In this document: positions 11,354 through 32,167 of the stretch, piece after piece
Numbering within the stretch: position 1 is the first letter of the stretch
Layout: each line of letters starts with the position of its first letter
IMG/VR virus record: IMGVR_UViG_2907233695_000001
Location: 100,119 to 164,118 of that record
Origin: a virus
Lineage: Duplodnaviria > Caudoviricetes
Strand: one strand, 5' to 3'
Length of the DNA stretch: 64,000 nt
Translations under genes and position numbers: made by a program
The notes under the pieces: model-generated
Told to the model about the DNA's origin: nothing
Seen by the model: the letters and a program-made list of their open reading frames with translations, nothing else
The model's database searches: none

Positions 11354-11411
11354 AACTTTTTGAACTAGACTGACTCACCATCTTGGTGGGTCTTTTTGGT
11401 TTGCAAAGTTT

Positions 11412-11519
11412 TTGAGCTGGAAGCAATCTGTTTAAGGTCGTGTAAAGTAAGGGCGATATCTCCCGTCTACCCCTTAGTCCAGCTCAAGATATTTTAGCCC
11501 ATATTCGGGTTAGGGAGAT
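11412..11519 (+). promoter_or_regulatory. structured leader with anti-SD loop
   Basis: Outer stem TTGAGCTGGA/TCCAGCTCAA; inner TAAGGG/CCCTTA hairpin whose loop ATCTCCC complements GGGAGAT at 11513-11519. Confidence 0.5.
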
Positions 11520-23362: not shown

Positions 23363-23860
23363 ATGTCAAAACAACTTACGCTTTCATCCATAAATAAAGC
23401 CCACGCAAAAGAGTTCAACGAACAAAAGCGAGTAACACTTAAAACAGGTGATTATATCGATTTACAAGTAAGGTTTAAGAAAACTAGTATTCAACGCTTC
23501 TTAATCGACTATCAAGAAATCCTCGAACAACTTAAAGAAAAAGAAGTGGATATGAACGTCATTAAGGACATCACTTTTATTTTCTATATGCTCCTTCTAC
23601 GCCACTTCACAAGTTTAAATATTATCCCGAACGAAGTTGATAAAATGGTAATTGTCTGCGAAAAGTTGATCGACCTTGATATTCTAGAGGAAATCATGAA
23701 TGCTTTTGATCCTGCTGAAATTGAAAAAGTGAATAATATGATGAAACAAGTTAGTGAAAATAGCGACTTGATTGGAGAGCAATTAGGAGAGATTTTTGCT
23801 AAGGCTGCTTTGAGTAAATTGACACAAAACGAGGTTGAGCAAGATGCCAACATTCAATAG
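23363..23860 (+). CDS. putative tail assembly chaperone
   Basis: Helical acidic 165 aa after tail tube; GGGAGG RBS. Confidence 0.55.
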   Translation: MSKQLTLSSINKAHAKEFNEQKRVTLKTGDYIDLQVRFKKTSIQRFLIDYQEILEQLKEKEVDMNVIKDITFIFYMLLLRHFTSLNIIPNEVDKMVIVCEKLIDLDILEEIMNAFDPAEIEKVNNMMKQVSENSDLIGEQLGEIFAKAALSKLTQNEVEQDANIQ

Positions 23861-24293
23861 TTTGAATGAACTTCAAAAATACATCGAGTCTCAAGCATCA
23901 AAAGTATTGAAAAATGAAGTTGCTCAAACAGTTACTCAGGAAATGAGTGAGACAATAAAAGAAGTTGAGTATCCCAAGTATGTATCACATGCTGAGAATC
24001 CGTATATTAGACAAATGGATGATGGTGGCTTGAGTGACGTTCGAAACATGCAAGTAGAGGTTATAGACGATAACACTATATCCATTACTAATGAGCGTAT
24101 GGATGGTACTACAGATGTAGCACAAATTTTCGCAACAGGTATTGGATATACATGGAAGAATTCTGAAATTTATAGTATGCAACCATTTCCTCGTAATTTC
24201 TATGCCGATACTGTTGAAAGATTGTTAAAGAATCAGAAACACGTTGAGGCATTTAAACAAGGTATGACTAGGCTAGGATTGAATGTGAAATAA
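23844..24293 (+). CDS. HK97 gp10-like tail component
   Basis: ATG 23844 after GAGG; Y.R....GL, PFPRNF motif. Confidence 0.5.
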   Translation: MPTFNSLNELQKYIESQASKVLKNEVAQTVTQEMSETIKEVEYPKYVSHAENPYIRQMDDGGLSDVRNMQVEVIDDNTISITNERMDGTTDVAQIFATGIGYTWKNSEIYSMQPFPRNFYADTVERLLKNQKHVEAFKQGMTRLGLNVK

Positions 24294-24318
24294 ATTTTAG
24301 ATTTTGAATTACTTGTTC

Positions 24319-24431
24319 AACAAGCGCACAAGGGTTGCAAACCTTGAGTGTCACTAACTCATCCTAGTGATACGTTGCGCTTGTTTCTTTTTATATAGGG
24401 AAGTTGGGATGGGGTGAATTGAGAGGATGAG
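24319..24431 (+). promoter_or_regulatory. three-way-junction leader with anti-SD loop
   Basis: AACAAGCGCA/TGCGCTTGTT outer stem; CAAGG/CCTTG hairpin; GTGTCACTA/TAGTGATAC hairpin with loop ACTCATCC complementary to AGGATGAG (24424-24431). Confidence 0.65.
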
Positions 24432-24437
24432 AAAGTA

Positions 24438-24626
24438 ATGCCAGCAAAAATAGATTTTAATATTATATATGAAGGAATAATAAACTATACAAGAAAATTG
24501 GGAAGAATACCTACAAATGCTGAAATAGATCAAAATGATAATTTACCCAGTTATCGAACAATACATACTGCATTTGTTAAAAACCAAGGTCAGGGATACA
24601 TTCCATATTTAATTTCAAAATGCTAA
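24438..24626 (+). CDS. single homing-endonuclease-associated repeat protein (possible remnant)
   Basis: KLGRIPT..EI....LPSY.T...F matches the repeat unit of 30455..32167; no nuclease domain. Confidence 0.55.
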   Translation: MPAKIDFNIIYEGIINYTRKLGRIPTNAEIDQNDNLPSYRTIHTAFVKNQGQGYIPYLISKC

Positions 24627-24732
24627 AACGTAATAATTTAAATTACAAAATACTTTATCCTGCTGATTTTCACAATAAATCGCTTGATGAAGTATTTTCT
24701 TTTTTATTTGAAGAATCAAGAGAGGTGGTTTA

Positions 24733-25755
24733 ATGCCTAGAAAAACATTTAAAAAGCAAATCACATCACCAGAACTGACAGAACAAATAAATCAAAAAAA
24801 TAAGAAACTGATTGATCGTTTCTTGAAGGAAAAAAATACACGATGTTCAGACACAACAATTGAAGCTTACACCAGCGACTTAAATATTTTCTTCACATGG
24901 AATCTTCTGAATAATGAAAATAAATTTTTCATTGAAATTAAGAAGATTGAATTCGCAGATTTCTTTAGTTACTGTGTTGAAGAATTAAAGTGGGGTTCTG
25001 CTCGTTTTGGACGAATGAAGTCTTGCCTTAGTTCGCTCTCTGAATTTATCATTCGATACTATGATGAAGATCATCCCAATTTTAGAAATGTTATCCTAAA
25101 AGCAATTGAATCAATGCCTCGTAACCCTGTACGAGAAAAAACGATTTTATCTGAAGAACAAGTAAATAGTCTTTTGAATCATCTTAAAAATGAAATCAGC
25201 AGACCTCAAGAAGCCTGTCTTCTCGCGTTAGCAATCGCAAGTGGTGCAAGGGTCTCTGAGTGGCTACGATTCACAACCGATATCATAGATGAAAATAACA
25301 CGGCTTTTGAAGATATGTTTCTTGAGACTACTAAGAAAATAAAAACTAAAGGCCGAACCAAGACAGGCAAAATGATTGAGAAGTATATAATTAAAGACAT
25401 TTTCCTGCCCTATTATAAAGACTGGTTGGTTGAGAGAGAAAGAATTATGAATGACAAAGGCAAGGATCATAATTCAATCTTTATTAAAAGAGATGGTGAA
25501 CCTGCCACAGTTGAGACAGTTCGAGGATGGATCGAAAAATGGGAATTATTTTTGGGAGTTCCTTTCTATCCTCATTGCCTTCGTCATTTCATAACTACCT
25601 ACATGTCTCGTCTAGGAATGTCTTCTGATTTTATCGTTGAAGTGATGGGATGGAATTCTACTGACATGGTTAAGGTCTATAACGACTTAACCGCTAAAGA
25701 AAAGAAATGGAAAGACCTAGAAAAACTGAAGGATCACTTAACTAAAACAGAATAA
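24733..25755 (+). CDS. yomM: tyrosine recombinase (YomM-like)
   Basis: SGARVSE (R), KTKG (K), HCLRH (HxxR), MGW, terminal VY (Y); sits in the tail operon as in SPbeta. Confidence 0.88.
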   Translation: MPRKTFKKQITSPELTEQINQKNKKLIDRFLKEKNTRCSDTTIEAYTSDLNIFFTWNLLNNENKFFIEIKKIEFADFFSYCVEELKWGSARFGRMKSCLSSLSEFIIRYYDEDHPNFRNVILKAIESMPRNPVREKTILSEEQVNSLLNHLKNEISRPQEACLLALAIASGARVSEWLRFTTDIIDENNTAFEDMFLETTKKIKTKGRTKTGKMIEKYIIKDIFLPYYKDWLVERERIMNDKGKDHNSIFIKRDGEPATVETVRGWIEKWELFLGVPFYPHCLRHFITTYMSRLGMSSDFIVEVMGWNSTDMVKVYNDLTAKEKKWKDLEKLKDHLTKTE

Positions 25756-25770
25756 AATCACACTTTCATT
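25751..25770. repeat. 7-6-7 quasi-palindrome copy 4 (AATAAAA-tcacac-TTTCATT)
   Basis: Overlaps the tyrosine recombinase stop codon. Confidence 0.72.
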
Positions 25771-25807
25771 CCATCGCACAAAAAAAACAAAATAAGCAAG
25801 TTTGACT

Positions 25808-25838
25808 AAGAGAGCCAAATTTACAGGTTCTCTTTTTT
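25808..25838 (+). terminator. intrinsic terminator
   Basis: AAGAGAGCC/GGTTCTCTT + T tract. Confidence 0.6.
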
Positions 25839-25877
25839 ATATCTAACAAAACAAAAAAACATAGGAGGAATTATAAA

Positions 25878-26348
25878 ATGATTGATGCAAATATCAAAGT
25901 AACAGGGCGCTTAAAAGTTGATTTATATCGCGATGGCGTACTTGTACAAGAAGGTCAATGGAGAGACAACGTTGTAACGACAGCAGGTAAAAACTCTCTC
26001 GCATCTTTGTTGAACTCTGCAAGCGCAGGTACATCTCTTGTTACTCACATGGGCTTTGGCACATCTGCTACCGCAGTTGCCGCTGGAGATACTGCACTCG
26101 GCGCAGAATTAACAATTGGATCAGCAGGATATAACCGTGTTTCTGTAACTCGTTCTAATCCATCTGGTAACGTAATTCAATACCAAGCTACTTTAACTGG
26201 AGTAACCTCTACACCTACGATTCAAGAATGCGGCCTTTTCAGTGCTTCCTCTGCTGGCACATTATTCGCTCATCAACTTACAGGAGCAGTAACTTTATCA
26301 TCCTCTTCTGACAGTCTTCAAATTACATGGCAAGTAACGTTTAGTTAA
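25878..26348 (+). CDS. tail-collar/fibre N-terminal-like structural protein
   Basis: NVVTTAG..L, MGFGT....AAGDTALGAE, IQECGLF, LQITW pattern of fibre attachment domains. Confidence 0.6.
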   Translation: MIDANIKVTGRLKVDLYRDGVLVQEGQWRDNVVTTAGKNSLASLLNSASAGTSLVTHMGFGTSATAVAAGDTALGAELTIGSAGYNRVSVTRSNPSGNVIQYQATLTGVTSTPTIQECGLFSASSAGTLFAHQLTGAVTLSSSSDSLQITWQVTFS

Positions 26349-26402
26349 TAGCGTGGCAGAGACTATGTTAAATGGTATTTTATTATTTAAGGGGGTAATT
26401 AT

Positions 26403-26693
26403 ATGGCAGTAGGTGACGTAACATCGGGATTATCTGCATCCGTAGCAAATAACGGCACAGTTAACATTCAGCCTGCATCAGGTGCGGAATGGGTTGTCCA
26501 TAACGTGTACTATTCCGGTGCGGTGGAGTTCTACATTGTGAACGGCGCGAACTCCATTAAATTCGATTCAGATACCTCTTTTGGTGCGCGTTTGGGTGCG
26601 GTATTCCACGTAAACAACACGCAATATCTGCAAATCAAAAACGTGTCGGGCGGCGCAGTCAATATTGCCTATGACGGCGTTGTAACGAAGTAG
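26403..26693 (+). CDS. small beta-rich putative virion protein
   Basis: 96 aa, AAGGGGG RBS, visibly GC-richer codons. Confidence 0.6.
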   Translation: MAVGDVTSGLSASVANNGTVNIQPASGAEWVVHNVYYSGAVEFYIVNGANSIKFDSDTSFGARLGAVFHVNNTQYLQIKNVSGGAVNIAYDGVVTK

Positions 26694-26701
26694 GTGAAAA
26701 T

Positions 26702-27481
26702 ATGAGCGTGAAATGGTTAGGCGATACCCGAGCGAATTATAAAGACCTCGGCGAACTTGTTGCAAGATATGTATTTAATGGTAATAAATCCGTATCAGTC
26801 TCTAGTGTTGATACGGTTAATAACATTTTTACAAGTACAGCACATGGTCTTACAAATGGTCAGAGGGTTGCAATATTTCTTAATCAAAATGCAGGCAAGA
26901 TACATCCCTTTACCGCTTTTCCTACAGGGTTTTCAACGAACAATTCTTATTATTATGTGGTCAATGCTACAACGGATACCTTTCAGGTATCTGCAACATC
27001 AGGCGGGGCGGCAAAAACTATAAGTGGTGGAGATATAACCAAGTGGCATTTTGAAGTGATAGGAGCGACTCTAATAAGCATTTCTAATCTTCCACCCGCC
27101 CCAAAATATAGATGTATTTTGTATGGCACAACAGCGTCGAATGTTTCGTTAATGCTTTACCCTAGTGCGCCTAACAACTGGAACGATAACAGTTCGATAA
27201 GGTACGCAGATAACACATTCGGTAACTGTAGTCTTGGCAGTAGTGCGAATTATTGGAACTATGTAGAAGCGTATTTCGATTCAACTGGAATCGCCAAAGC
27301 AAGCTATAAAGGAAAAACAATAACGGCTTCACCGTCGGCGGCGACGTTTACAGGTACAAGTATAACTGACGCTTTTGTATTTACAAACACGACATTCGCT
27401 GATTCCTTAATTTCGGGGATTACGTTCAATTGTGGGGAACTAATTGCTAACGGAACGGTAATGGAGGTGTATACGGCATGA
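26702..27481 (+). CDS. putative fibre/receptor-binding protein
   Basis: FTSTAHGLTNGQRV..YYVVNATTDTFQVS.T.GG module; S/T/G-rich. Confidence 0.5.
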   Translation: MSVKWLGDTRANYKDLGELVARYVFNGNKSVSVSSVDTVNNIFTSTAHGLTNGQRVAIFLNQNAGKIHPFTAFPTGFSTNNSYYYVVNATTDTFQVSATSGGAAKTISGGDITKWHFEVIGATLISISNLPPAPKYRCILYGTTASNVSLMLYPSAPNNWNDNSSIRYADNTFGNCSLGSSANYWNYVEAYFDSTGIAKASYKGKTITASPSAATFTGTSITDAFVFTNTTFADSLISGITFNCGELIANGTVMEVYTA

Positions 27482-27912
27482 AAAGTGCAAACTTCGATGC
27501 GCTAACAGGTGAAGTTACTTATGTAGATGCACCCGTGAATACACTATCGCTTTCCGAAGCACAAACACAACAAATTACATTAATTACAAATGATTATCGA
27601 AGGGCAACTCAAACTTTTCAATCTTCAGCATTAGGCTCTGTTTTTACTTACTTAGCCGATGACACATCACTAGGTAAATTTAACGCAGAGTATGCTTATG
27701 TTAATAGCACTGACTATGACGGACTACCTATTTTATGGTATACCTTGGAACAAGGTGGAGTAAACCATACAAAAGACCAGTTCTGCCAAGTTTGGAAAGA
27801 CGGAAGGCTGTATCTTCGGGATAAATTCAATAAATGGGATACGCTGGTTAAACAAATTAAATCAAATACCAAGGAATCAGATGTTCCTACAGTAATGGCA
27901 ATAACGTGGTAA
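27478..27912 (+). CDS. DUF4376-like fibre assembly chaperone
   Basis: FQSSALG, HTKDQF, V.AITW; resembles C-terminus of 55408..56397. Confidence 0.6.
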   Translation: MKSANFDALTGEVTYVDAPVNTLSLSEAQTQQITLITNDYRRATQTFQSSALGSVFTYLADDTSLGKFNAEYAYVNSTDYDGLPILWYTLEQGGVNHTKDQFCQVWKDGRLYLRDKFNKWDTLVKQIKSNTKESDVPTVMAITW

Positions 27913-27929
27913 GGGCAGGTGAATAACCC

Positions 27930-29426
27930 ATGCCAATAACAGAGCGAGGCAGGATAGCCACATCCACACTAGACGAACGTGGACGAAGGGTAAACGGTGC
28001 GCTAACAGAGCAAGGGCAAGCGGTATTTGGAGCGGGCACAGGCTCATCATACACAAAATCGCTTTCTGATTCAGTTTCTTTTTCCGAAATACTGCTAAAA
28101 GGAATAATGCAATCTCAATCTGACTCGCTTTCTTCATCTGATACAATATATAAATTATTGTCATCTATGAAATCAGATTCCTTAACCTTATCCGATGCTA
28201 TTGCAAAATCAAGCGCATTAACCAAGTCTGATACCATAGTGAGCACAGATACTATAAATAAACGTCTTTCAGTTACGATTATCGATAATTTATCTGCCAC
28301 TGATACCATTGCCAAACAATCCGGTAAATCATTGTCCGACACAGTAAACAGCTCAGAAAGCACAAGCAGAAATAACTCTAAATCATTTACATTCAACGAT
28401 TTTATCACTAGTGCTGATGCCATCGCATTGATGCAAGGTAAAGCGATAAATCTGAGTGATTCAATTACTCTCGTAGATACTATTCGCAAGTCATTTTCCA
28501 TCTCCAAAGCAGATATTGTTTCTACAACAGAGAGCGAGAATGATTTAACCTCTAAACAACTGTTTGACTTGATTTCACAGTCTGACTCTATTGCTGCTTC
28601 AAGAGGTAAAGCGGTCAACTTAAGCGATTCTATCGCCATTGTTGATTCAATACGCAAAGCACTTACTTTGACCAGATCAGACAATGTTTTGGCATCCGAA
28701 ACAGATAGAGCATCAACAAATAAACTCTTATCTGATTTCTTATCACAGACGGATGTATTGACTACTAGCACAGGTAAACTTGTTGTTTTGAGCGATAACA
28801 TTTCAATTACCGAATCACTGAAAAAAACAATCCAAAAAAGCAAATCTGATTCTGTTGGTATAGCAGAAACATTCTCTAAACAGGCCAGTATGAGCTTGCG
28901 CTTGTACGATGTGGTTATTTCTACAGAAGCGTTTACAAAGACTTTGCCAAATGCCCCAACGCTTATCGGAACAATTGAACTTGAGGGTGAGCAAGTTCTT
29001 TATGTTCACCTTAGTGGCGAACAAGTTCTTTATGTTTACCTTAGCGGTGAACAAGATTTATACATCAACCTCGAAGGAGGTATAGGAGTGACGAAACAAA
29101 ACCAAGATTTTGAAATGTTTGCTGGTGAATCAAAATATATAAGCGTTCCTGTAACAATGTCTGCAAATACTGATTTATCTGGTTCAACCATCAAGTGGGC
29201 AGTCAAGAAGTCAGTTATAAATGTAAATAATGAAGTATTAAAAATTTCATCTGATGGTGGAATTTCAATTGACCCTGCCACAGGGAAATTTGTAATCAAT
29301 CTCAATCCTGCGGATACAGAAAACTTATCAGGAAGTTACTATCATGCTGCTGAGTTAATTGATGCAAATGAGCATGTATCTACTTTGTTTACAGGTGTTG
29401 CTAAGTTTCATAAAAGTGGGATATAG
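27930..29426 (+). CDS. S/D/T-repeat fibre protein fused to BppU-like C-terminal domain
   Basis: About 19-21 aa LSDSI...D.I.K repeats; C-terminal FEMFAGESK..GKFVINLNPADT..GSYYHAAEL. Confidence 0.6.
   Translation: MPITERGRIATSTLDERGRRVNGALTEQGQAVFGAGTGSSYTKSLSDSVSFSEILLKGIMQSQSDSLSSSDTIYKLLSSMKSDSLTLSDAIAKSSALTKSDTIVSTDTINKRLSVTIIDNLSATDTIAKQSGKSLSDTVNSSESTSRNNSKSFTFNDFITSADAIALMQGKAINLSDSITLVDTIRKSFSISKADIVSTTESENDLTSKQLFDLISQSDSIAASRGKAVNLSDSIAIVDSIRKALTLTRSDNVLASETDRASTNKLLSDFLSQTDVLTTSTGKLVVLSDNISITESLKKTIQKSKSDSVGIAETFSKQASMSLRLYDVVISTEAFTKTLPNAPTLIGTIELEGEQVLYVHLSGEQVLYVYLSGEQDLYINLEGGIGVTKQNQDFEMFAGESKYISVPVTMSANTDLSGSTIKWAVKKSVINVNNEVLKISSDGGISIDPATGKFVINLNPADTENLSGSYYHAAELIDANEHVSTLFTGVAKFHKSGI
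28986..29075 (+). repeat. 3 x 30-bp tandem repeat (GEQVLYVxLS)
   Basis: ggtgagcaagttctttatgttcaccttagt / ggcgaacaagttctttatgtttaccttagc / ggtgaacaagatttatacatcaacctcgaa. Confidence 0.85.
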
Positions 29427-29427
29427 A

Positions 29428-29447
29428 GATAAAACATTCGTTTCATA
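29428..29447. repeat. 7-6-7 quasi-palindrome copy 5 (GATAAAA-cattcg-TTTCATA)
   Basis: Immediately after the stop of the last cassette gene. Confidence 0.7.
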
Positions 29448-29460
29448 GGATTATTCTTAA

Positions 29461-29500
29461 TAAAAAAACTGCATCTATAAGTATAGGTGCAGTTCATTTT
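29461..29500. terminator. bidirectional terminator
   Basis: AACTGCATCTATA-ag-TATAGGTGCAGTT, A tract on left and T tract on right, between convergent genes. Confidence 0.7.
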
Positions 29501-29519
29501 GTTAAGGAATTTTATGTAG

Positions 29520-29831
29520 TTATACTTTATCTCCAAAATCTTTTTGAATTTGTCTTAGCCGTTCTAGTTTGGCTTGCATTTCAAAATCTGCTTCATTCAC
29601 AAACAAATGAGATCGCAATCCACCGAAGAATGCGTCATATGCTTCATCATATCCATCAAAACCATACTTGTCGAGAAGCATTCGCTCATATTCGATAACG
29701 TGTTGTTCAAGAATGTGCGCAACATAATTACCCAATTTGCGCTTGTCTACATCGGCTAATATCTGCAATTTATTTTTTAATCCTTTATCGAGGACGAATG
29801 TAAACCGTTCGTTATTGTCTGCAATAGCCAT
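29520..29831 (-). CDS. ribbon-helix-helix DNA-binding protein
   Basis: NERFTFVLDKGLKNKLQILADVDKRKLGNYVAHILEQHV is an RHH pattern; AGGAG RBS on minus strand. Confidence 0.75.
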   Translation of the reverse strand: MAIADNNERFTFVLDKGLKNKLQILADVDKRKLGNYVAHILEQHVIEYERMLLDKYGFDGYDEAYDAFFGGLRSHLFVNEADFEMQAKLERLRQIQKDFGDKV

Positions 29832-29981
29832 ATAATCAACTCCTGATCAAAAGTTGTACCAAAGTTCTTAACCTTTTAACAACAATATAACATATAACGT
29901 TGAACTGTAAAAGTTAAATTATTTCATTATAGAGTGAAAAGTTACGCTTCCAAGTGAAAAAATATTGCTTTTGATGAACTA

Positions 29982-30010
29982 TTGACACAAGGTTCTTAAC
30001 CTTGTATACT
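29982..30010 (+). promoter_or_regulatory. sigmaA promoter with palindromic operator in spacer
   Basis: TTGACA-17 nt-TATACT; ACAAGGTT-ctt-AACCTTGT at 29987-30005; related copy CCAAAGTTCTTAACCTTTT at 29859-29877. Confidence 0.75.
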
Positions 30011-30052
30011 CTGATTATGGGATGGAAATTATTCCAAGAGGAGATGGTTCGG

Positions 30053-30292
30053 ATGGAACTACTATTCACTGAACAATTGGATCGAGCACAGACAAAGCAG
30101 CAATTATTATCGTTACTTGAGATTGTATCTGAAGAGAAATGGGTATTCGATTTAATTAAGAATACTTGGCTTGACGATCACGTTGGATTGTTTGTTAACA
30201 AGTGGTTTCTAGGTAATATCGATGAGCTACATTGGGATGTAAACAGATTTACAAGCCAATACATAGAAAAAGGCTCAGTGCTGGAACACTGA
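30053..30292 (+). CDS. hypothetical protein (79 aa)
   Basis: ATG 30053 after GAGGAG RBS, downstream of consensus promoter. Confidence 0.55.
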   Translation: MELLFTEQLDRAQTKQQLLSLLEIVSEEKWVFDLIKNTWLDDHVGLFVNKWFLGNIDELHWDVNRFTSQYIEKGSVLEH

Positions 30293-30342
30293 ACCGATGC
30301 TGAATGGATTCAATGAAATTATATAATATGTTTATAAAGTTT

Positions 30343-30447
30343 ACAATAGATAGGATATGATTAGCTACCATATCTGACAAGAGGTGAATACACTCCACTC
30401 ACCTCTTCTGTTGTCTTTTATGTGGTGGAGTAATTAACTAAGGAGTG
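30343..30447 (+). promoter_or_regulatory. three-way-junction leader with anti-SD loop
   Basis: ACAATAGA/TCTGTTGT outer stem; GATATG/CATATC hairpin; AGAGGTGA/TCACCTCT hairpin with loop ACACTCCAC complementary to GTGGAGT (30425) and GGAGTG (30442). Confidence 0.65.
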
Positions 30448-30454
30448 ATTTTTT

Positions 30455-32167
30455 ATGGGTGGAATTAAATGGAATAAAGAGGATGATAATGTTTTAATCG
30501 AACTATATAATACGGCAGAACAAGAAGAAATATTAAGTAAGCTATTAATTAAAAGAGGTTGGCCTCAAATCGTTCTAAGAGCAATGAAATTAGGATTACA
30601 AAGAAGTAAAGAAGCGAAATATGGTAAACAGACTATGAGTGAAGAGTTTTTGATAAATGAATTAAAAAGGTTTTCCTATAAATATAATAAGACTCCTTAT
30701 ATAAATGGAATGAATAAAGATAAGGAATTTCCAAGTTCAACAGTTTTTGAAGATAGATTTGGAAGTTGGAATAATGCTCTGATTGCTGCTGGATTCGAAT
30801 TAAATTCTTTGAAAGTTTATGATAAAGAATATTTAATGAAAGAAGCAATTGATTTTTACGAAAAAAATAATAGAAGTCCTTATTATAATGAATTATCATT
30901 TTCAAGTAATATTATTAGACATTATTGGCCTTCTTGGAATGAATTTCTTATAGATTGCAATTTACCAATAAATAAAAATTATCACAGTTTAAAAACAAAA
31001 GAAGACGGAATTACTTTTTTGAAACAATTTTATGAAGGTAGCAATAAAAAACCAACTAAAAACGATCTTAAGAATCTTGGATTGAATGATTCGTGGTTCG
31101 CACTAAAATTTGGCAGTTATAATAAAGCATTATTTGAAGCAGGACTTGTTACAGATGATAAAATAATAACCAAGAATGAAAGAATTGATCGTGCAATATT
31201 GGGATTGAAAAATTTATTCAGTGAATTAGGTTATTGTCCAACGGTTCAAGAATATGATGAATATGCAAAAAAACATAAGTTGAGTCGCAGACGAAACTTA
31301 GAGGGTTTGCTTGGATTGAATTATAATGATATTTGCTTAAAATACATTGGAGAAGCAAATATCGTCAAACGATCAAAAGAAGAACTAATTGAAATTTTAA
31401 ATGAATTAAAAAACAAACTAGGTAGAGCGCCTATGACAATAGAAATAAAGGAAAGTGGACTTACTAGTATTAATCAAATACAGCGAGTATTTGGAATGAC
31501 TTTTAATCAAATCATTCAAGAACTAGGTTGGGCGTTAACTGGTCACGTTTATAGCAATAAATCAAACGAAGAAATGCTTCAAGATTATTTTGAATTATAC
31601 AATAAACTAAAAAGAATCCCATTAATGGAAGACATTAATAATCAATCCGAGATGGCAAACTATACAACATATAAAAATAAGTTGGGAAGTATTAGAGATA
31701 TATGTAATTTATTAAACATCGATTATAAAAATGAAATTGTTCTGTATAAATCTGGAGAAGGAAAAATCTGTTTCGACAGAAACGGAGAACAATGTAGATC
31801 ATACCCAGAAATGGTAATTTCAAATATACTCATTGACAATGAGATAAAATTTATTAAAGAATACCCATATAAAAAGGTAATTCCAAACGATAAGACGAAG
31901 AGAAATTTTGATTGGAAATTACAAGAACATGATATCTTCATTGAATACTTTGGGATGTTTAATGAAAAAAGTTTAAAAAATGATTCAAAATTTTCTAAAT
32001 ACACCAAAAAGGCTATTAAAAAAATTAATGACTGTGAAAAAGCGAACATACAATTAATCGCTATTTTGCCAACTGATTTAGATAATAATTATTTTGGGTT
32101 AATTGAGAAATTATCAAAATTTCAATTAAAAGTAAAAATTGAAGAGTCTTATGAGAATATTTTTTAA
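30455..32167 (+). CDS. putative homing endonuclease with tandem ~60-aa repeats and PD-(D/E)xK domain
   Basis: About 6 repeats (E.LI..L..F.....P......FGSWN.AL); C-terminal CRSYPE..I.N.L..N.I.F..E..Y, FDW, IFIEYFG; very AT-rich. Confidence 0.72.
   Translation: MGGIKWNKEDDNVLIELYNTAEQEEILSKLLIKRGWPQIVLRAMKLGLQRSKEAKYGKQTMSEEFLINELKRFSYKYNKTPYINGMNKDKEFPSSTVFEDRFGSWNNALIAAGFELNSLKVYDKEYLMKEAIDFYEKNNRSPYYNELSFSSNIIRHYWPSWNEFLIDCNLPINKNYHSLKTKEDGITFLKQFYEGSNKKPTKNDLKNLGLNDSWFALKFGSYNKALFEAGLVTDDKIITKNERIDRAILGLKNLFSELGYCPTVQEYDEYAKKHKLSRRRNLEGLLGLNYNDICLKYIGEANIVKRSKEELIEILNELKNKLGRAPMTIEIKESGLTSINQIQRVFGMTFNQIIQELGWALTGHVYSNKSNEEMLQDYFELYNKLKRIPLMEDINNQSEMANYTTYKNKLGSIRDICNLLNIDYKNEIVLYKSGEGKICFDRNGEQCRSYPEMVISNILIDNEIKFIKEYPYKKVIPNDKTKRNFDWKLQEHDIFIEYFGMFNEKSLKNDSKFSKYTKKAIKKINDCEKANIQLIAILPTDLDNNYFGLIEKLSKFQLKVKIEESYENIF

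Follow-up and report, generated by a model that had tools for sequence, protein, structure and literature searches.

A putative family of Y-shaped RNA leaders with loops matched to the ribosome-binding sites of phage nuclease-type genes

Two genes encoding homing-endonuclease-associated repeats, in a 64,000-nucleotide stretch of phage DNA (the window), are each preceded by an RNA leader in which an outer stem bears two hairpins, and the loop of the second hairpin is complementary to the Shine-Dalgarno (SD) sequence downstream. The same leader design is found in 11 further places, giving 13 instances with both window copies. On balance, these are best regarded as a family of Y-shaped leaders of about 55-80 nt that form a portable head piece of nuclease-type (homing-endonuclease-like) genes in SPbeta-like and other Bacillota phages. 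What is shown here is the fold with its covariation and strand, a loop that is specific for two sites, and an association of the leaders with interchangeable nuclease ORFs. The function is less secure, in the absence of data on expression, RNA ends or RNA structure probing; the reading that we favour, with moderate confidence, is a portable translational brake combined with a partial terminator, representing a branched, long-range variant of the ribosome-site hairpins of T4 homing endonuclease genes.

The two leaders of the window and their genes

Leader 1 lies on the plus strand at 24319-24385, where the minimum free energy structure returned by RNAfold is the same as the three-way-junction model (TWJ1). 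A 10-bp outer stem (24319-24328 with 24376-24385) encloses hairpin 1 (24329-24346), with a 5-bp stem and a loop at 24334-24341 containing the palindrome UUGCAA, and hairpin 2 (24348-24373), with a 9-bp stem and the loop ACUCAUCC at 24357-24364. The stems of the parsed model comprise 23 Watson-Crick pairs and a single G-U pair, with a folding energy of -30.3 kcal/mol (z = -6.0 against dinucleotide shuffles). The U tract TCTTTTT (24386-24392, plus strand) is immediately 3' of the outer stem. Further downstream on the same strand are two targets of the hairpin-2 loop, namely GGGATGGGG at 24406-24414, which pairs with one G-U (RNAduplex, -10.0 kcal/mol), and AGGATGAGA at 24424-24432, which forms seven Watson-Crick pairs (-10.6 kcal/mol). 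The second target is the SD of a 62-aa ORF, and ends 5 nt 5' of the ATG at 24438. TWJ1 is not significant under the covariance models R2 and R3 (14.7 and 12.7 bits, respectively), and its membership of the family rests on architecture and on the rule relating loop to target.

The 62-aa ORF (24438-24626, plus strand) encodes a single HNH_repeat-like unit. It scores 13.6 bits against Pfam HNH_repeat, which is under the Pfam cut-off, and a phmmer search of 1.84 billion proteins aligns it with repeat units in numerous HNH_repeat proteins, with E-values down to 1.5e-19. The matched proteins, which are Pfam HNH_repeat proteins, are repeat arrays with 3-7 stretches each. Together, leader 1 and the ORF constitute an insertion of ~440 bp with yomN-like and yomM-like genes on either side; in relatives, yomN and yomM are adjacent.

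In the case of leader 2 (TWJ2; 30343-30414, plus strand), the model is supported by folding and by covariance model R2, which was built without TWJ2 and nonetheless recovers it in a search of 79 kb, with a score of 18.8 bits (E = 0.028). The outer stem is 8 bp (30343-30350 with 30407-30414), hairpin 1 (30354-30374) has a 6-bp stem and the loop AUUAGCUAC at 30360-30368 containing the palindrome UAGCUA, and hairpin 2 (30380-30406) has an 8-bp stem and the loop AUACACUCCAC at 30388-30398. The folding energy is -21.3 kcal/mol (z = -3.1 against dinucleotide shuffles), with the caveat that a longer, 128-nt fold yields a competing nested structure of -27.7 kcal/mol in place of TWJ2. The U-rich tract CTTTTAT (30415-30421, plus strand) directly follows the outer stem. 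The first target, GGTGGAGTA (30424-30432, plus strand), makes seven Watson-Crick pairs with the hairpin-2 loop (RNAduplex, -10.5 kcal/mol), and the second, AGGAGTGA (30441-30448, plus strand; -10.6 kcal/mol), is the SD of a 570-aa gene and ends 6 nt 5' of the ATG at 30455.

The 570-aa protein (30455-32167, plus strand) has, on the basis of Pfam, PHROG and a structure model, an N-terminus that is Myb-like, then five HNH_repeat units, and a nuclease domain of the PD-(D/E)xK type at its C-terminus. Five stretches match Pfam PF18780 HNH_repeat (153.6 bits, E = 1.7e-45), and the protein also matches phrog_22655 and phrog_9084, annotated as 'homing endonuclease'. The structure model predicts that the C-terminal domain (pLDDT 87.9) has the fold of PD-(D/E)xK nucleases of the Vsr and I-Bth0305I type, as it aligns with the I-Bth0305I catalytic domain (3r3p; VIA-align Z 8.9, rmsd 3.6, 94/97 residues) and with Vsr (1cw0; Z 8.0, rmsd 4.2, 115 residues); the Foldseek E-values are weak taken alone, and cleavage activity is inferred. 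Residues D486, E497 and K523 are conserved, and have not been mapped onto known active sites.

Both leaders are intercistronic, situated 26 and 50 nt past stop codons. Upstream of leader 2, a consensus scan identified a promoter-like site, TTGACA-17-TATACT, at 29982-30010 on the plus strand (11/12 matches). From sequence alone, this site is inferred to drive a 79-aa ORF (30054-30292) and, via leader 2, the nuclease gene. The site overlaps a dyad repeat of family D3 beside a divergent RHH gene (29520-29831, minus strand; TraY/RHH match).

An earlier note, made without database searches, had claimed two leaders at these places with a shared architecture and a U tract, a second-hairpin loop complementary to the downstream SD with the target present twice, and a homing-endonuclease-associated repeat in both genes. 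The first claim held with respect to folds and energies and the second held in both window leaders, as did the third, where the 62-aa ORF falls short of the Pfam cut-off and is supported by phmmer. The note had also proposed a search of Rfam; with the Rfam 15 covariance models, no family overlaps either window leader.

Fold, loops and targets across thirteen leaders

When the whole window was scanned for compact Y-shaped folds with a T tract behind them, TWJ1 and TWJ2 stood out, with one weaker look-alike at 11410-11489. The window itself is DNA of an SPbeta-like, Bacillus-type prophage. Beyond it, instances are found in Geobacillus virus E3, uncultured SPbeta-like phages, one Bacillus genome, and one genome of the window's own genus. 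All 13 leaders are positioned 35-75 nt 5' of the start of an ORF whose product is of nuclease type or a modular DNA-binding protein, and the nuclease-type genes behind them have at least four architectures: HNH_repeat with PD-(D/E)xK, GIY-YIG/NUMOD3, Myb/NUMOD-like/resolvase-like, and Cys-rich or Zn-ribbon modular proteins. Three unrelated ORFs of E3-like phages share a near-identical leader (at least 95% identity through the second target). Thus, the suggestion in the earlier note that the element travels with nucleases held, both for nuclease-type genes of several architectures and for the same leader before unrelated ORFs. It should be noted that 13 instances are few and partly related, and that stem boundaries were set by hand with G-U allowed, which flatters the pair counts.

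Over the 13 leaders, the stems contain 267 pairs, consisting of 252 Watson-Crick and 15 G-U pairs (12 of them interior), without a single A-C or other mismatch, and the fold therefore belongs to the sense-strand RNA. When five leaders are aligned with a covariance model, the paired cells amount to 94.5%, as compared to 30-42% when the partner is slid by 1-3 columns, with the caveat that the alignment was fitted to the model. Both sides have changed in 16 of the 22 pairs; an absence of covariation in homologous leaders would, according to the earlier note, have refuted the idea. Hairpin 1 of E3, for instance, departs from that of L011 by two compensatory pairs, within sequence that is otherwise near-identical.

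The loop of hairpin 2 is complementary to two sites just downstream in every one of the 13 leaders, even though the loop sequences are very different, with CUCC-type loops at one end and CCCAACCC and CUAUCCUUA at the other. In 12 leaders, there is overlap between the second site and the presumptive SD, the lone exception being L016, whose called start has neither target as its SD. For the best site, the cognate loop/target energies sum to -129.0 kcal/mol, versus -85.3 +/- 5.9 kcal/mol for permuted pairings, and for the second-best site to -113.3 versus -60.8 +/- 4.3 kcal/mol; none of 20,000 permutations reaches the cognate value at either site. Loops without an SD-like sequence still match their targets, as evidenced by L020 (CCCAACCC with GGTTGG and GTTGGG) and by L021, whose non-SD-like loop matches TAAGGATAG and AAGGATAG. 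The two targets of a leader are of near-equal strength and 15-36 nt apart, a duplication noted earlier for two leaders only and now general across the 13. No complement of the hairpin-1 loop was found downstream, and unrelated Y-shaped folds from viral contigs with the same outer stem have neither of these loop/target features. The comparative data from 13 leaders support the view that pairing of the hairpin-2 loop with the SD is under selection, as the earlier note had argued from loop-SD co-variation in two.

In 12/13 leaders, the outer stem is followed by at least five T residues within 10 nt, against 13.7% of window 10-mers (P about 5e-10). A stable stem with a U tract directly behind it, as expected of an intrinsic (Rho-independent) terminator, is thus present; the stem closes a fold that is branched, unlike that of a simple hairpin, and a simple terminator scan of the window did not call the leaders. 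Several outer stems are A-U-rich and branched, features that are poor for intrinsic termination. L023 has no U tract and sits right after the -10-like TGGTATAAT, indicating that termination is not universal.

A feature absent from the earlier note, and shown here as a new observation, is a 6-nt palindrome in the loop of hairpin 1. It is present in 11/13 leaders, against a chance of 5.7-7.5% per loop, as five different hexamers (UAGCUA, UGAUCA, UCAUGA, UUGCAA and UAAUUA), with only two G-C pairs and self-duplex energies of about -5 to -6.6 kcal/mol. Eight loops, of four types, are 9 nt long and arranged 2+6+1, whereas five leaders have loops of 7-8 nt. The loop AUUAGCUAC is common to leader 2, L017, L018 and L023, although their stems differ. 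The two leaders without a palindrome, L009 and L016, have short hairpin-1 loops, and two targets nonetheless.

A proposed brake and its rivals

In the favoured reading, the sense transcript would fold into the outer stem bearing two hairpins, and the outer stem and U tract would stop part of the incoming transcription. On read-through transcripts, hairpin 2 would offer an apical loop with an anti-SD tailored to each gene, and this loop would pair with one of the two complementary sites close by. At the second site, pairing would cover the SD and keep nuclease synthesis low; the first may serve for competing or auxiliary docking. That translation is repressed, that transcription terminates, and what the first site does are all inferred. 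One loop cannot pair with both sites simultaneously, and simple occlusion thus leaves the need for two sites unexplained. The 'switch' inferred in the earlier note is not shown, nor is what relieves the element, nor the note's alternative of an RNA partner of the protein.

The rival that survives best is that the leader acts between molecules. Terminated transcripts or whole leaders would dimerise through the self-complementary hairpin-1 loop as a kissing complex, and the two anti-SD loops of the dimer would clamp both targets of a read-through nuclease mRNA, making repression dependent on RNA concentration, or the leader a small regulatory RNA. A bolder form, also no more than possible, is a protein-free, dose-sensing lock for any plugged-in ORF, with the U tract releasing free copies that act in trans. 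In favour of dimerisation, which is inferred, are the frequency of the palindrome and its variety of hexamers, the retention of AUUAGCUAC in four leaders with differing stems, the eight 2+6+1 loops, which resemble the HIV-1 dimerisation site (PMC2943608), the constant presence of two similarly strong, closely spaced targets, and the U tract, which could release a discrete RNA. Against it, no dimer or small RNA is on record, the hexamer self-duplexes have few G-C pairs and modest energies, L009 and L016 keep two targets without a palindromic loop, and the palindrome could equally be read by a dimeric protein.

An unlikely alternative is that the element chiefly insulates the nuclease gene, by terminating transcription or as a site of RNA processing, that the resemblance of loop to SD has no regulatory role, and that the first, purine-rich site stabilises the RNA as do the SD-like 5' stabilisers of Bacillus. 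SD-like 5' stabilisers and intercistronic RNase III sites do occur in Bacillus phages, and the near-universal U tract after the stem and the intercistronic position of the window leaders are consistent with this reading. However, it does not account for loops that track non-SD-like targets in L020, L021 and L023, or for cognate pairs that beat all permutations at both sites; moreover, a plain hairpin would be enough for termination, and L023 lacks the U tract.

Least likely by far is that the repeats are DNA sites, an operator of one inverted and two direct copies plus the palindrome bound by a DNA-binding protein, for example the nearby RHH protein or the nuclease: a gene-specific motif in three copies with a 6-bp palindrome would fit protein binding, HNH_repeat arrays are presumed DNA-binding modules and an RHH gene is close by, but a strand-symmetric site would not yield 15 non-Watson-Crick stem positions that are all G-U on the sense strand and never A-C, the inverted copy invariably falls precisely on the apical loop of a hairpin that covaries, the second copy is at the SD, unrelated proteins are served by the same leader, and dyad repeats belonging to the RHH gene are present at other places.

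Significance and comparison with known systems

Homing endonucleases and similar selfish nucleases need low levels, and the mechanism is so far known mainly from a handful of T-even genes. If the translational brake is the correct reading, the leader family would represent a different, modular solution in Bacillota phages, with a loop re-written for each ribosome site, a duplicated target and a self-complementary second loop. Reuse of the leader before unrelated ORFs means that it marks cassette boundaries, and therefore helps to find mobile nuclease genes left unnamed by protein searches. Since the loop sequence specifies the target sequence, the pairing is directly testable by compensatory mutations, and, for Gram-positive hosts, the leader may provide a translational brake that can be programmed. 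Dimerisation, if driven by the palindromic loop, would make the leader a rare bacterial case of RNA-RNA self-association in gene control.

Among known RNAs, int-alpA (Rfam RF02996) is an orphan candidate motif (Weinberg et al. 2017; PMC5737381) that is not discussed in the main text of that paper. Identity with int-alpA was rejected, as RF02996 has no match in the window at the gathering threshold (35.8 bits), none at E up to 10 in 24000-31000, and none genome-wide. The hosts of int-alpA are Proteobacteria, unlike those of the leader family, and no example was found in the K-12 CP4-57 region.

The HIV-1 dimerisation initiation site has a 9-nt loop in which a 6-nt self-complementary core has two nucleotides on its 5' side and one on its 3' side, and its palindromes differ between isolates (PMC2943608). 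The likeness is to the 6-nt self-complementary core in an 8-9-nt hairpin-1 loop of 11/13 leaders. The biology is unrelated, however, and the leaders differ in their A-U-rich cores, in the shorter loops, and in the two loops that lack a palindrome.

The closest precedent, correctly identified by the earlier note, is that of T-even phages, where structures sequestering the RBS hold down the genes for I-TevI, I-TevII, I-TevIII and segB, and mobE of Aeh1 (PMC2988022, section 12). In both systems, a cis RNA lies directly 5' of a selfish nuclease gene and its pairing covers the SD (inferred for the phage leader), and this is combined with transcriptional limits in negative control of a potentially harmful enzyme. 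In T4, the RBS is inside a local hairpin and is relieved via an embedded late promoter. For the leaders, no relieving promoter was identified, and a consensus scan that does not cover SPbeta-like late promoters found no sigma-A-like sites inside the window leaders. The leader family, in Bacillota rather than T-even phages, is further distinguished by its duplicated target, the U tract after the junction and the palindromic loop. Here, the RBS is outside a conserved three-way junction, with the SD 25-69 nt 3' of it, and would be reached by a hairpin loop rather than a stem arm, in a pseudoknot-type pairing.

Two leaders of common design and the search for relatives

An outer stem of 10 bp bearing two hairpins forms in leader 1 (24319-24385; -30.3 kcal/mol, z = -6.0). 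Leader 2 (30343-30414) shares this architecture, at -21.3 kcal/mol (z = -3.1); a longer fold of leader 2 gives a competing nested structure. Downstream of each junction come first a U-rich tract and then two complements of the hairpin-2 loop, the second of which is the Shine-Dalgarno sequence (SD). The shared architecture and the repeated target proposed in the earlier note both held. Both leaders stood out as compact Y-shaped elements when the window was scanned for folds anchored on T tracts and with a descriptor. No Rfam 15 family lies over either leader, by gathering score or at E values up to 10. For int-alpA there was no match anywhere in the window's genome, nor was an example for comparison found in E. 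coli K-12 CP4-57.

A weaker look-alike is present on the plus strand at 11410-11489, 3' of a plain terminator and 5' of an ORF starting at about 11550. It is a Y-shaped fold with a 12-bp outer stem (-25 kcal/mol), whose second hairpin loop contains ATCTCCC, with GGGAGAT 23 nt downstream. This single target is not the SD of the ORF, and there is no palindromic loop.

Homologues of the 570-aa protein encoded behind leader 2 were traced to their contigs, and the upstream sequence was read for the leader architecture, which was found in Geobacillus virus E3 (L008) and at loci L009, L011, L016, L018, L020, L021 and L017, the last a Bacillus sp. genome. A locus search with a six-sequence protein alignment returned four loci only. 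The leader is absent from HNH_repeat homologues in a non-phage context (L012 and L013) and in an SPbeta context (L014 and L019); the contig of locus L010 is cut. Upstream of the L019 homologue, at about 2440-2470, a U tract accompanies a simple hairpin; this hairpin has the hexamer TAGCTA in its large loop and may be a decayed leader.

MAFFT alignments of the leaders were out of structural register, and covariance models were therefore built stepwise (R1, R2 and R3). R1, made from E3 and L011, matched L020 (29.8 bits) and L017 (26.3 bits). In 79 kb, R2 matched L018 at 19.2 bits (E = 0.023) and leader 2 of the window at 18.8 bits (E = 0.028); leader 1 scored only 14.7 bits under R2, and its membership rests on architecture only. 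When five sequences were aligned to the model, 94.5% of cells were paired, versus 30-42% in slid controls, and 16 of 22 pairs differed on both sides, numbers that lean towards the model because the alignment was fitted to it. In the window's own genome, leader 2 was the sole R3 match. Overlapping draws of genomes from the genus (28), family (136) and order (151) added a single true member, L023, which lies in a genome of the window's genus. The false positives of R3 were plain terminators (L024-L029 and L035), and L036 (18.6 bits, E = 0.3) was set aside as a non-member. Two further copies, L033 and L034, were recovered by R3 on the IMG/VR contig that bears L016. The pattern GGCAGGTGA...TCACCTGC occurs at 79 loci in viral contigs; the real ones are E3 relatives only, and the remainder were used as negative controls.

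Features common to thirteen leaders

Thirteen instances were compared, some of them related, with E3 and L011 being close relatives. Their stems comprise 267 pairs (252 Watson-Crick and 15 G-U, 12 of the latter interior) without a mismatch, although the stem limits were set by the author, which favours clean counts and is not independent of the model. Because the 15 G-U pairs would become A-C mismatches on the opposite strand, the fold is that of a sense-strand RNA rather than of DNA, and an antisense-strand RNA was rejected.

The hairpin-2 loop is 8-14 nt long, with two complementary sites of near-equal strength no more than 75 nt downstream and spaced 15-36 nt apart. Target 1 lies 9-26 nt 3' of the stem, and target 2 overlaps the presumptive SD in all leaders except that of L016. 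The earlier note's claim that loop and SD co-vary held across the thirteen leaders: the cognate sum was -129.0 kcal/mol for the best site, versus -85.3 +/- 5.9 for permuted loop/leader pairs, and -113.3 versus -60.8 +/- 4.3 for the second site, none of 20,000 permutations reaching either cognate value. The loops extend from CUCC-type through CCCAACCC (L020), CUAUCCUUA (L021) and CAGCCUAA (L023), a range so wide that the loop/target match is no by-product of resemblance to the pairing of 16S rRNA and SD. Of the 13 leaders, 12 have a U tract after the stem; 10-mers this rich in T make up 13.7% of those in the window.

The loop of hairpin 1 carries a 6-nt palindrome in 11 of the 13 leaders, a new feature that the earlier note did not contain; the chance of one in a random loop of 8-9 nt is 5.7-7.5%. 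UAGCUA recurs in four leaders with unrelated stems, and UGAUCA, UCAUGA, UUGCAA and UAAUUA are found in others. Eight of these loops are 9 nt long, in a 2+6+1 layout. No further copy of the hexamer was found in the flanks. Control Y-shaped folds in viral contigs, sharing the E3 outer-stem sequence, have neither a palindrome nor strong loop-2 targets.

The leader goes with the gene behind it

Three observations show that the leader goes with the ORF behind it and not with the preceding gene. First, four E3-like loci (L008, L011, L044 and L087) are at least 95% identical from the start of the junction as far as the second target, with homology ending right after GGGAGTTG, just before the start codon. 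Second, leader 1 and its 62-aa ORF form an insertion of about 440 bp between yomN and yomM, which are neighbours in all relatives. Third, the genes 5' of leader 2 and of the L011 leader are unrelated. The E3-like loci also display cassette exchange, in that a near-identical leader of about 125 nt is followed by unrelated ORFs (HNH_repeat nuclease, Cys-rich repeat or zinc ribbon).

A homing-endonuclease-associated repeat had been claimed behind both leaders, and this held: the 570-aa protein has a Myb-like start, five HNH_repeat units and a C-terminal domain, and the 62-aa ORF is a single HNH_repeat-like unit. Homologues of the 62-aa ORF were not found by word-based search; an exhaustive search did find them. 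The C-terminal domain (model pLDDT 87.9) aligns in VIA-align with the catalytic domain of the homing endonuclease I-Bth0305I (Z 8.9, rmsd 3.6, 94/97 residues) and with Vsr (Z 8.0, rmsd 4.2, 115 residues). Foldseek E-values for this domain are weak, the Z of about 8-9 coming from the VIA-align second look only, and the nuclease family profile had no match among PDB sequences. Elsewhere, leaders stand ahead of a GIY-YIG/NUMOD3 gene (L023) and of genes for a Myb/NUMOD-like/resolvase-like protein (L034) and, at L033, for a CHC2 zinc-ribbon protein. At two loci in relatives of E3, the leader is followed by a gene for a Cys-rich repeat protein (L044) or for a zinc-ribbon protein in which IEVMGTYWH appears Vsr-like by eye (L087). 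At L023 (737-2372, minus strand), the ORF immediately ahead of the GIY-YIG/NUMOD3 gene and its leader encodes 242 aa that resemble the N-terminal portion of a tape-measure protein, and the tape measure of phage E3 is annotated as two pieces, GP42 and GP43 (L008 10575-13485). It is possible that nuclease insertions split the tape-measure genes in both.

With about 36% G+C, the window covers late genes of an SPbeta-like prophage; almost all genes lie on the plus strand, and three proteins are longer than 2,000 aa. The gene order is that of E3 and uncultured relatives: yomO, a yomN-like gene (23835-24293; 33% identity, E = 2e-14), a yomM-like tyrosine recombinase (24733-25755; E = 4e-18), an HNH_repeat gene and the tape measure. 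The region had no DNA match in 50,697 phage records, nor had the leader DNA in 40 relatives. Between the recombinase and an RHH gene, tail-fibre-like genes (phrog_4176, phrog_1348 and DUF4376) occupy 25878-29426, a stretch missing from the relatives examined and containing minus-strand ORFs at 27877-28164 and 28115-28843; G+C skew becomes negative at 28-30 kb.

Leader 2 starts 50 nt past a 79-aa ORF (30054-30292), whose transcription seems to come from a strong promoter-like site upstream, TTGACA-17-TATACT, which overlaps dyad repeats beside the divergent RHH gene (29520-29831, minus strand). This arrangement suggests a small regulated operon with the nuclease as its second cistron. Direct repeats at 29844-29878 and 29972-30006 each contain the dyad AAGGTT-CTT-AACCTT, the latter repeat overlapping the promoter-like site between the RHH gene and the 79-aa ORF, and are likely to be an RHH operator for this nuclease-ended operon.

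Translational control and comparison with known systems

In the absence of RNA data, the leader is best read, by a modest margin, as a translational brake acting in cis that doubles as a partial terminator. The hairpin-2 loop would pair with the SD in read-through transcripts, and target 1 may represent a decoy, a competing docking ('parking') site that would tune the balance between on and off. Simple occlusion needs neither a duplicated target nor a palindromic loop; the decoy or a dimer reading would fit both. In the dimer, which we consider unlikely, two junctions would be held together by a kissing contact at hairpin 1, with one loop from each clamping the pair of targets, in cis or as a released RNA of about 80 nt. 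A role as nothing more than a terminator or stabiliser is very unlikely, as are operators at the level of DNA, given the loop/target specificity test and the G-U asymmetry. An upstream mini-ORF driven by target 1 was rejected as a general role, since start codons and frames are not conserved (in frame in E3, out of frame in L011, none usable in leader 2). A ribozyme or riboswitch has little in its favour, the junctions being almost without unpaired conserved nucleotides and without an Rfam match.

No paper on this leader family was found in the literature searched. The proposed loop-SD pairing would act in the manner of the structures that sequester the RBS of homing-endonuclease genes in T-even phages (PMC2988022). 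The leaders differ, however, in leaving the SD outside the fold, for a loop to reach, in having two copies of the target and in showing no evident relieving promoter. The 2+6+1 layout of the 9-nt hairpin-1 loops is that of the HIV-1 dimerisation site (PMC2943608). This leader family of Bacillota combines a U tract, a target that is always double and a self-complementary loop, and probably represents a new form of a known kind of control.
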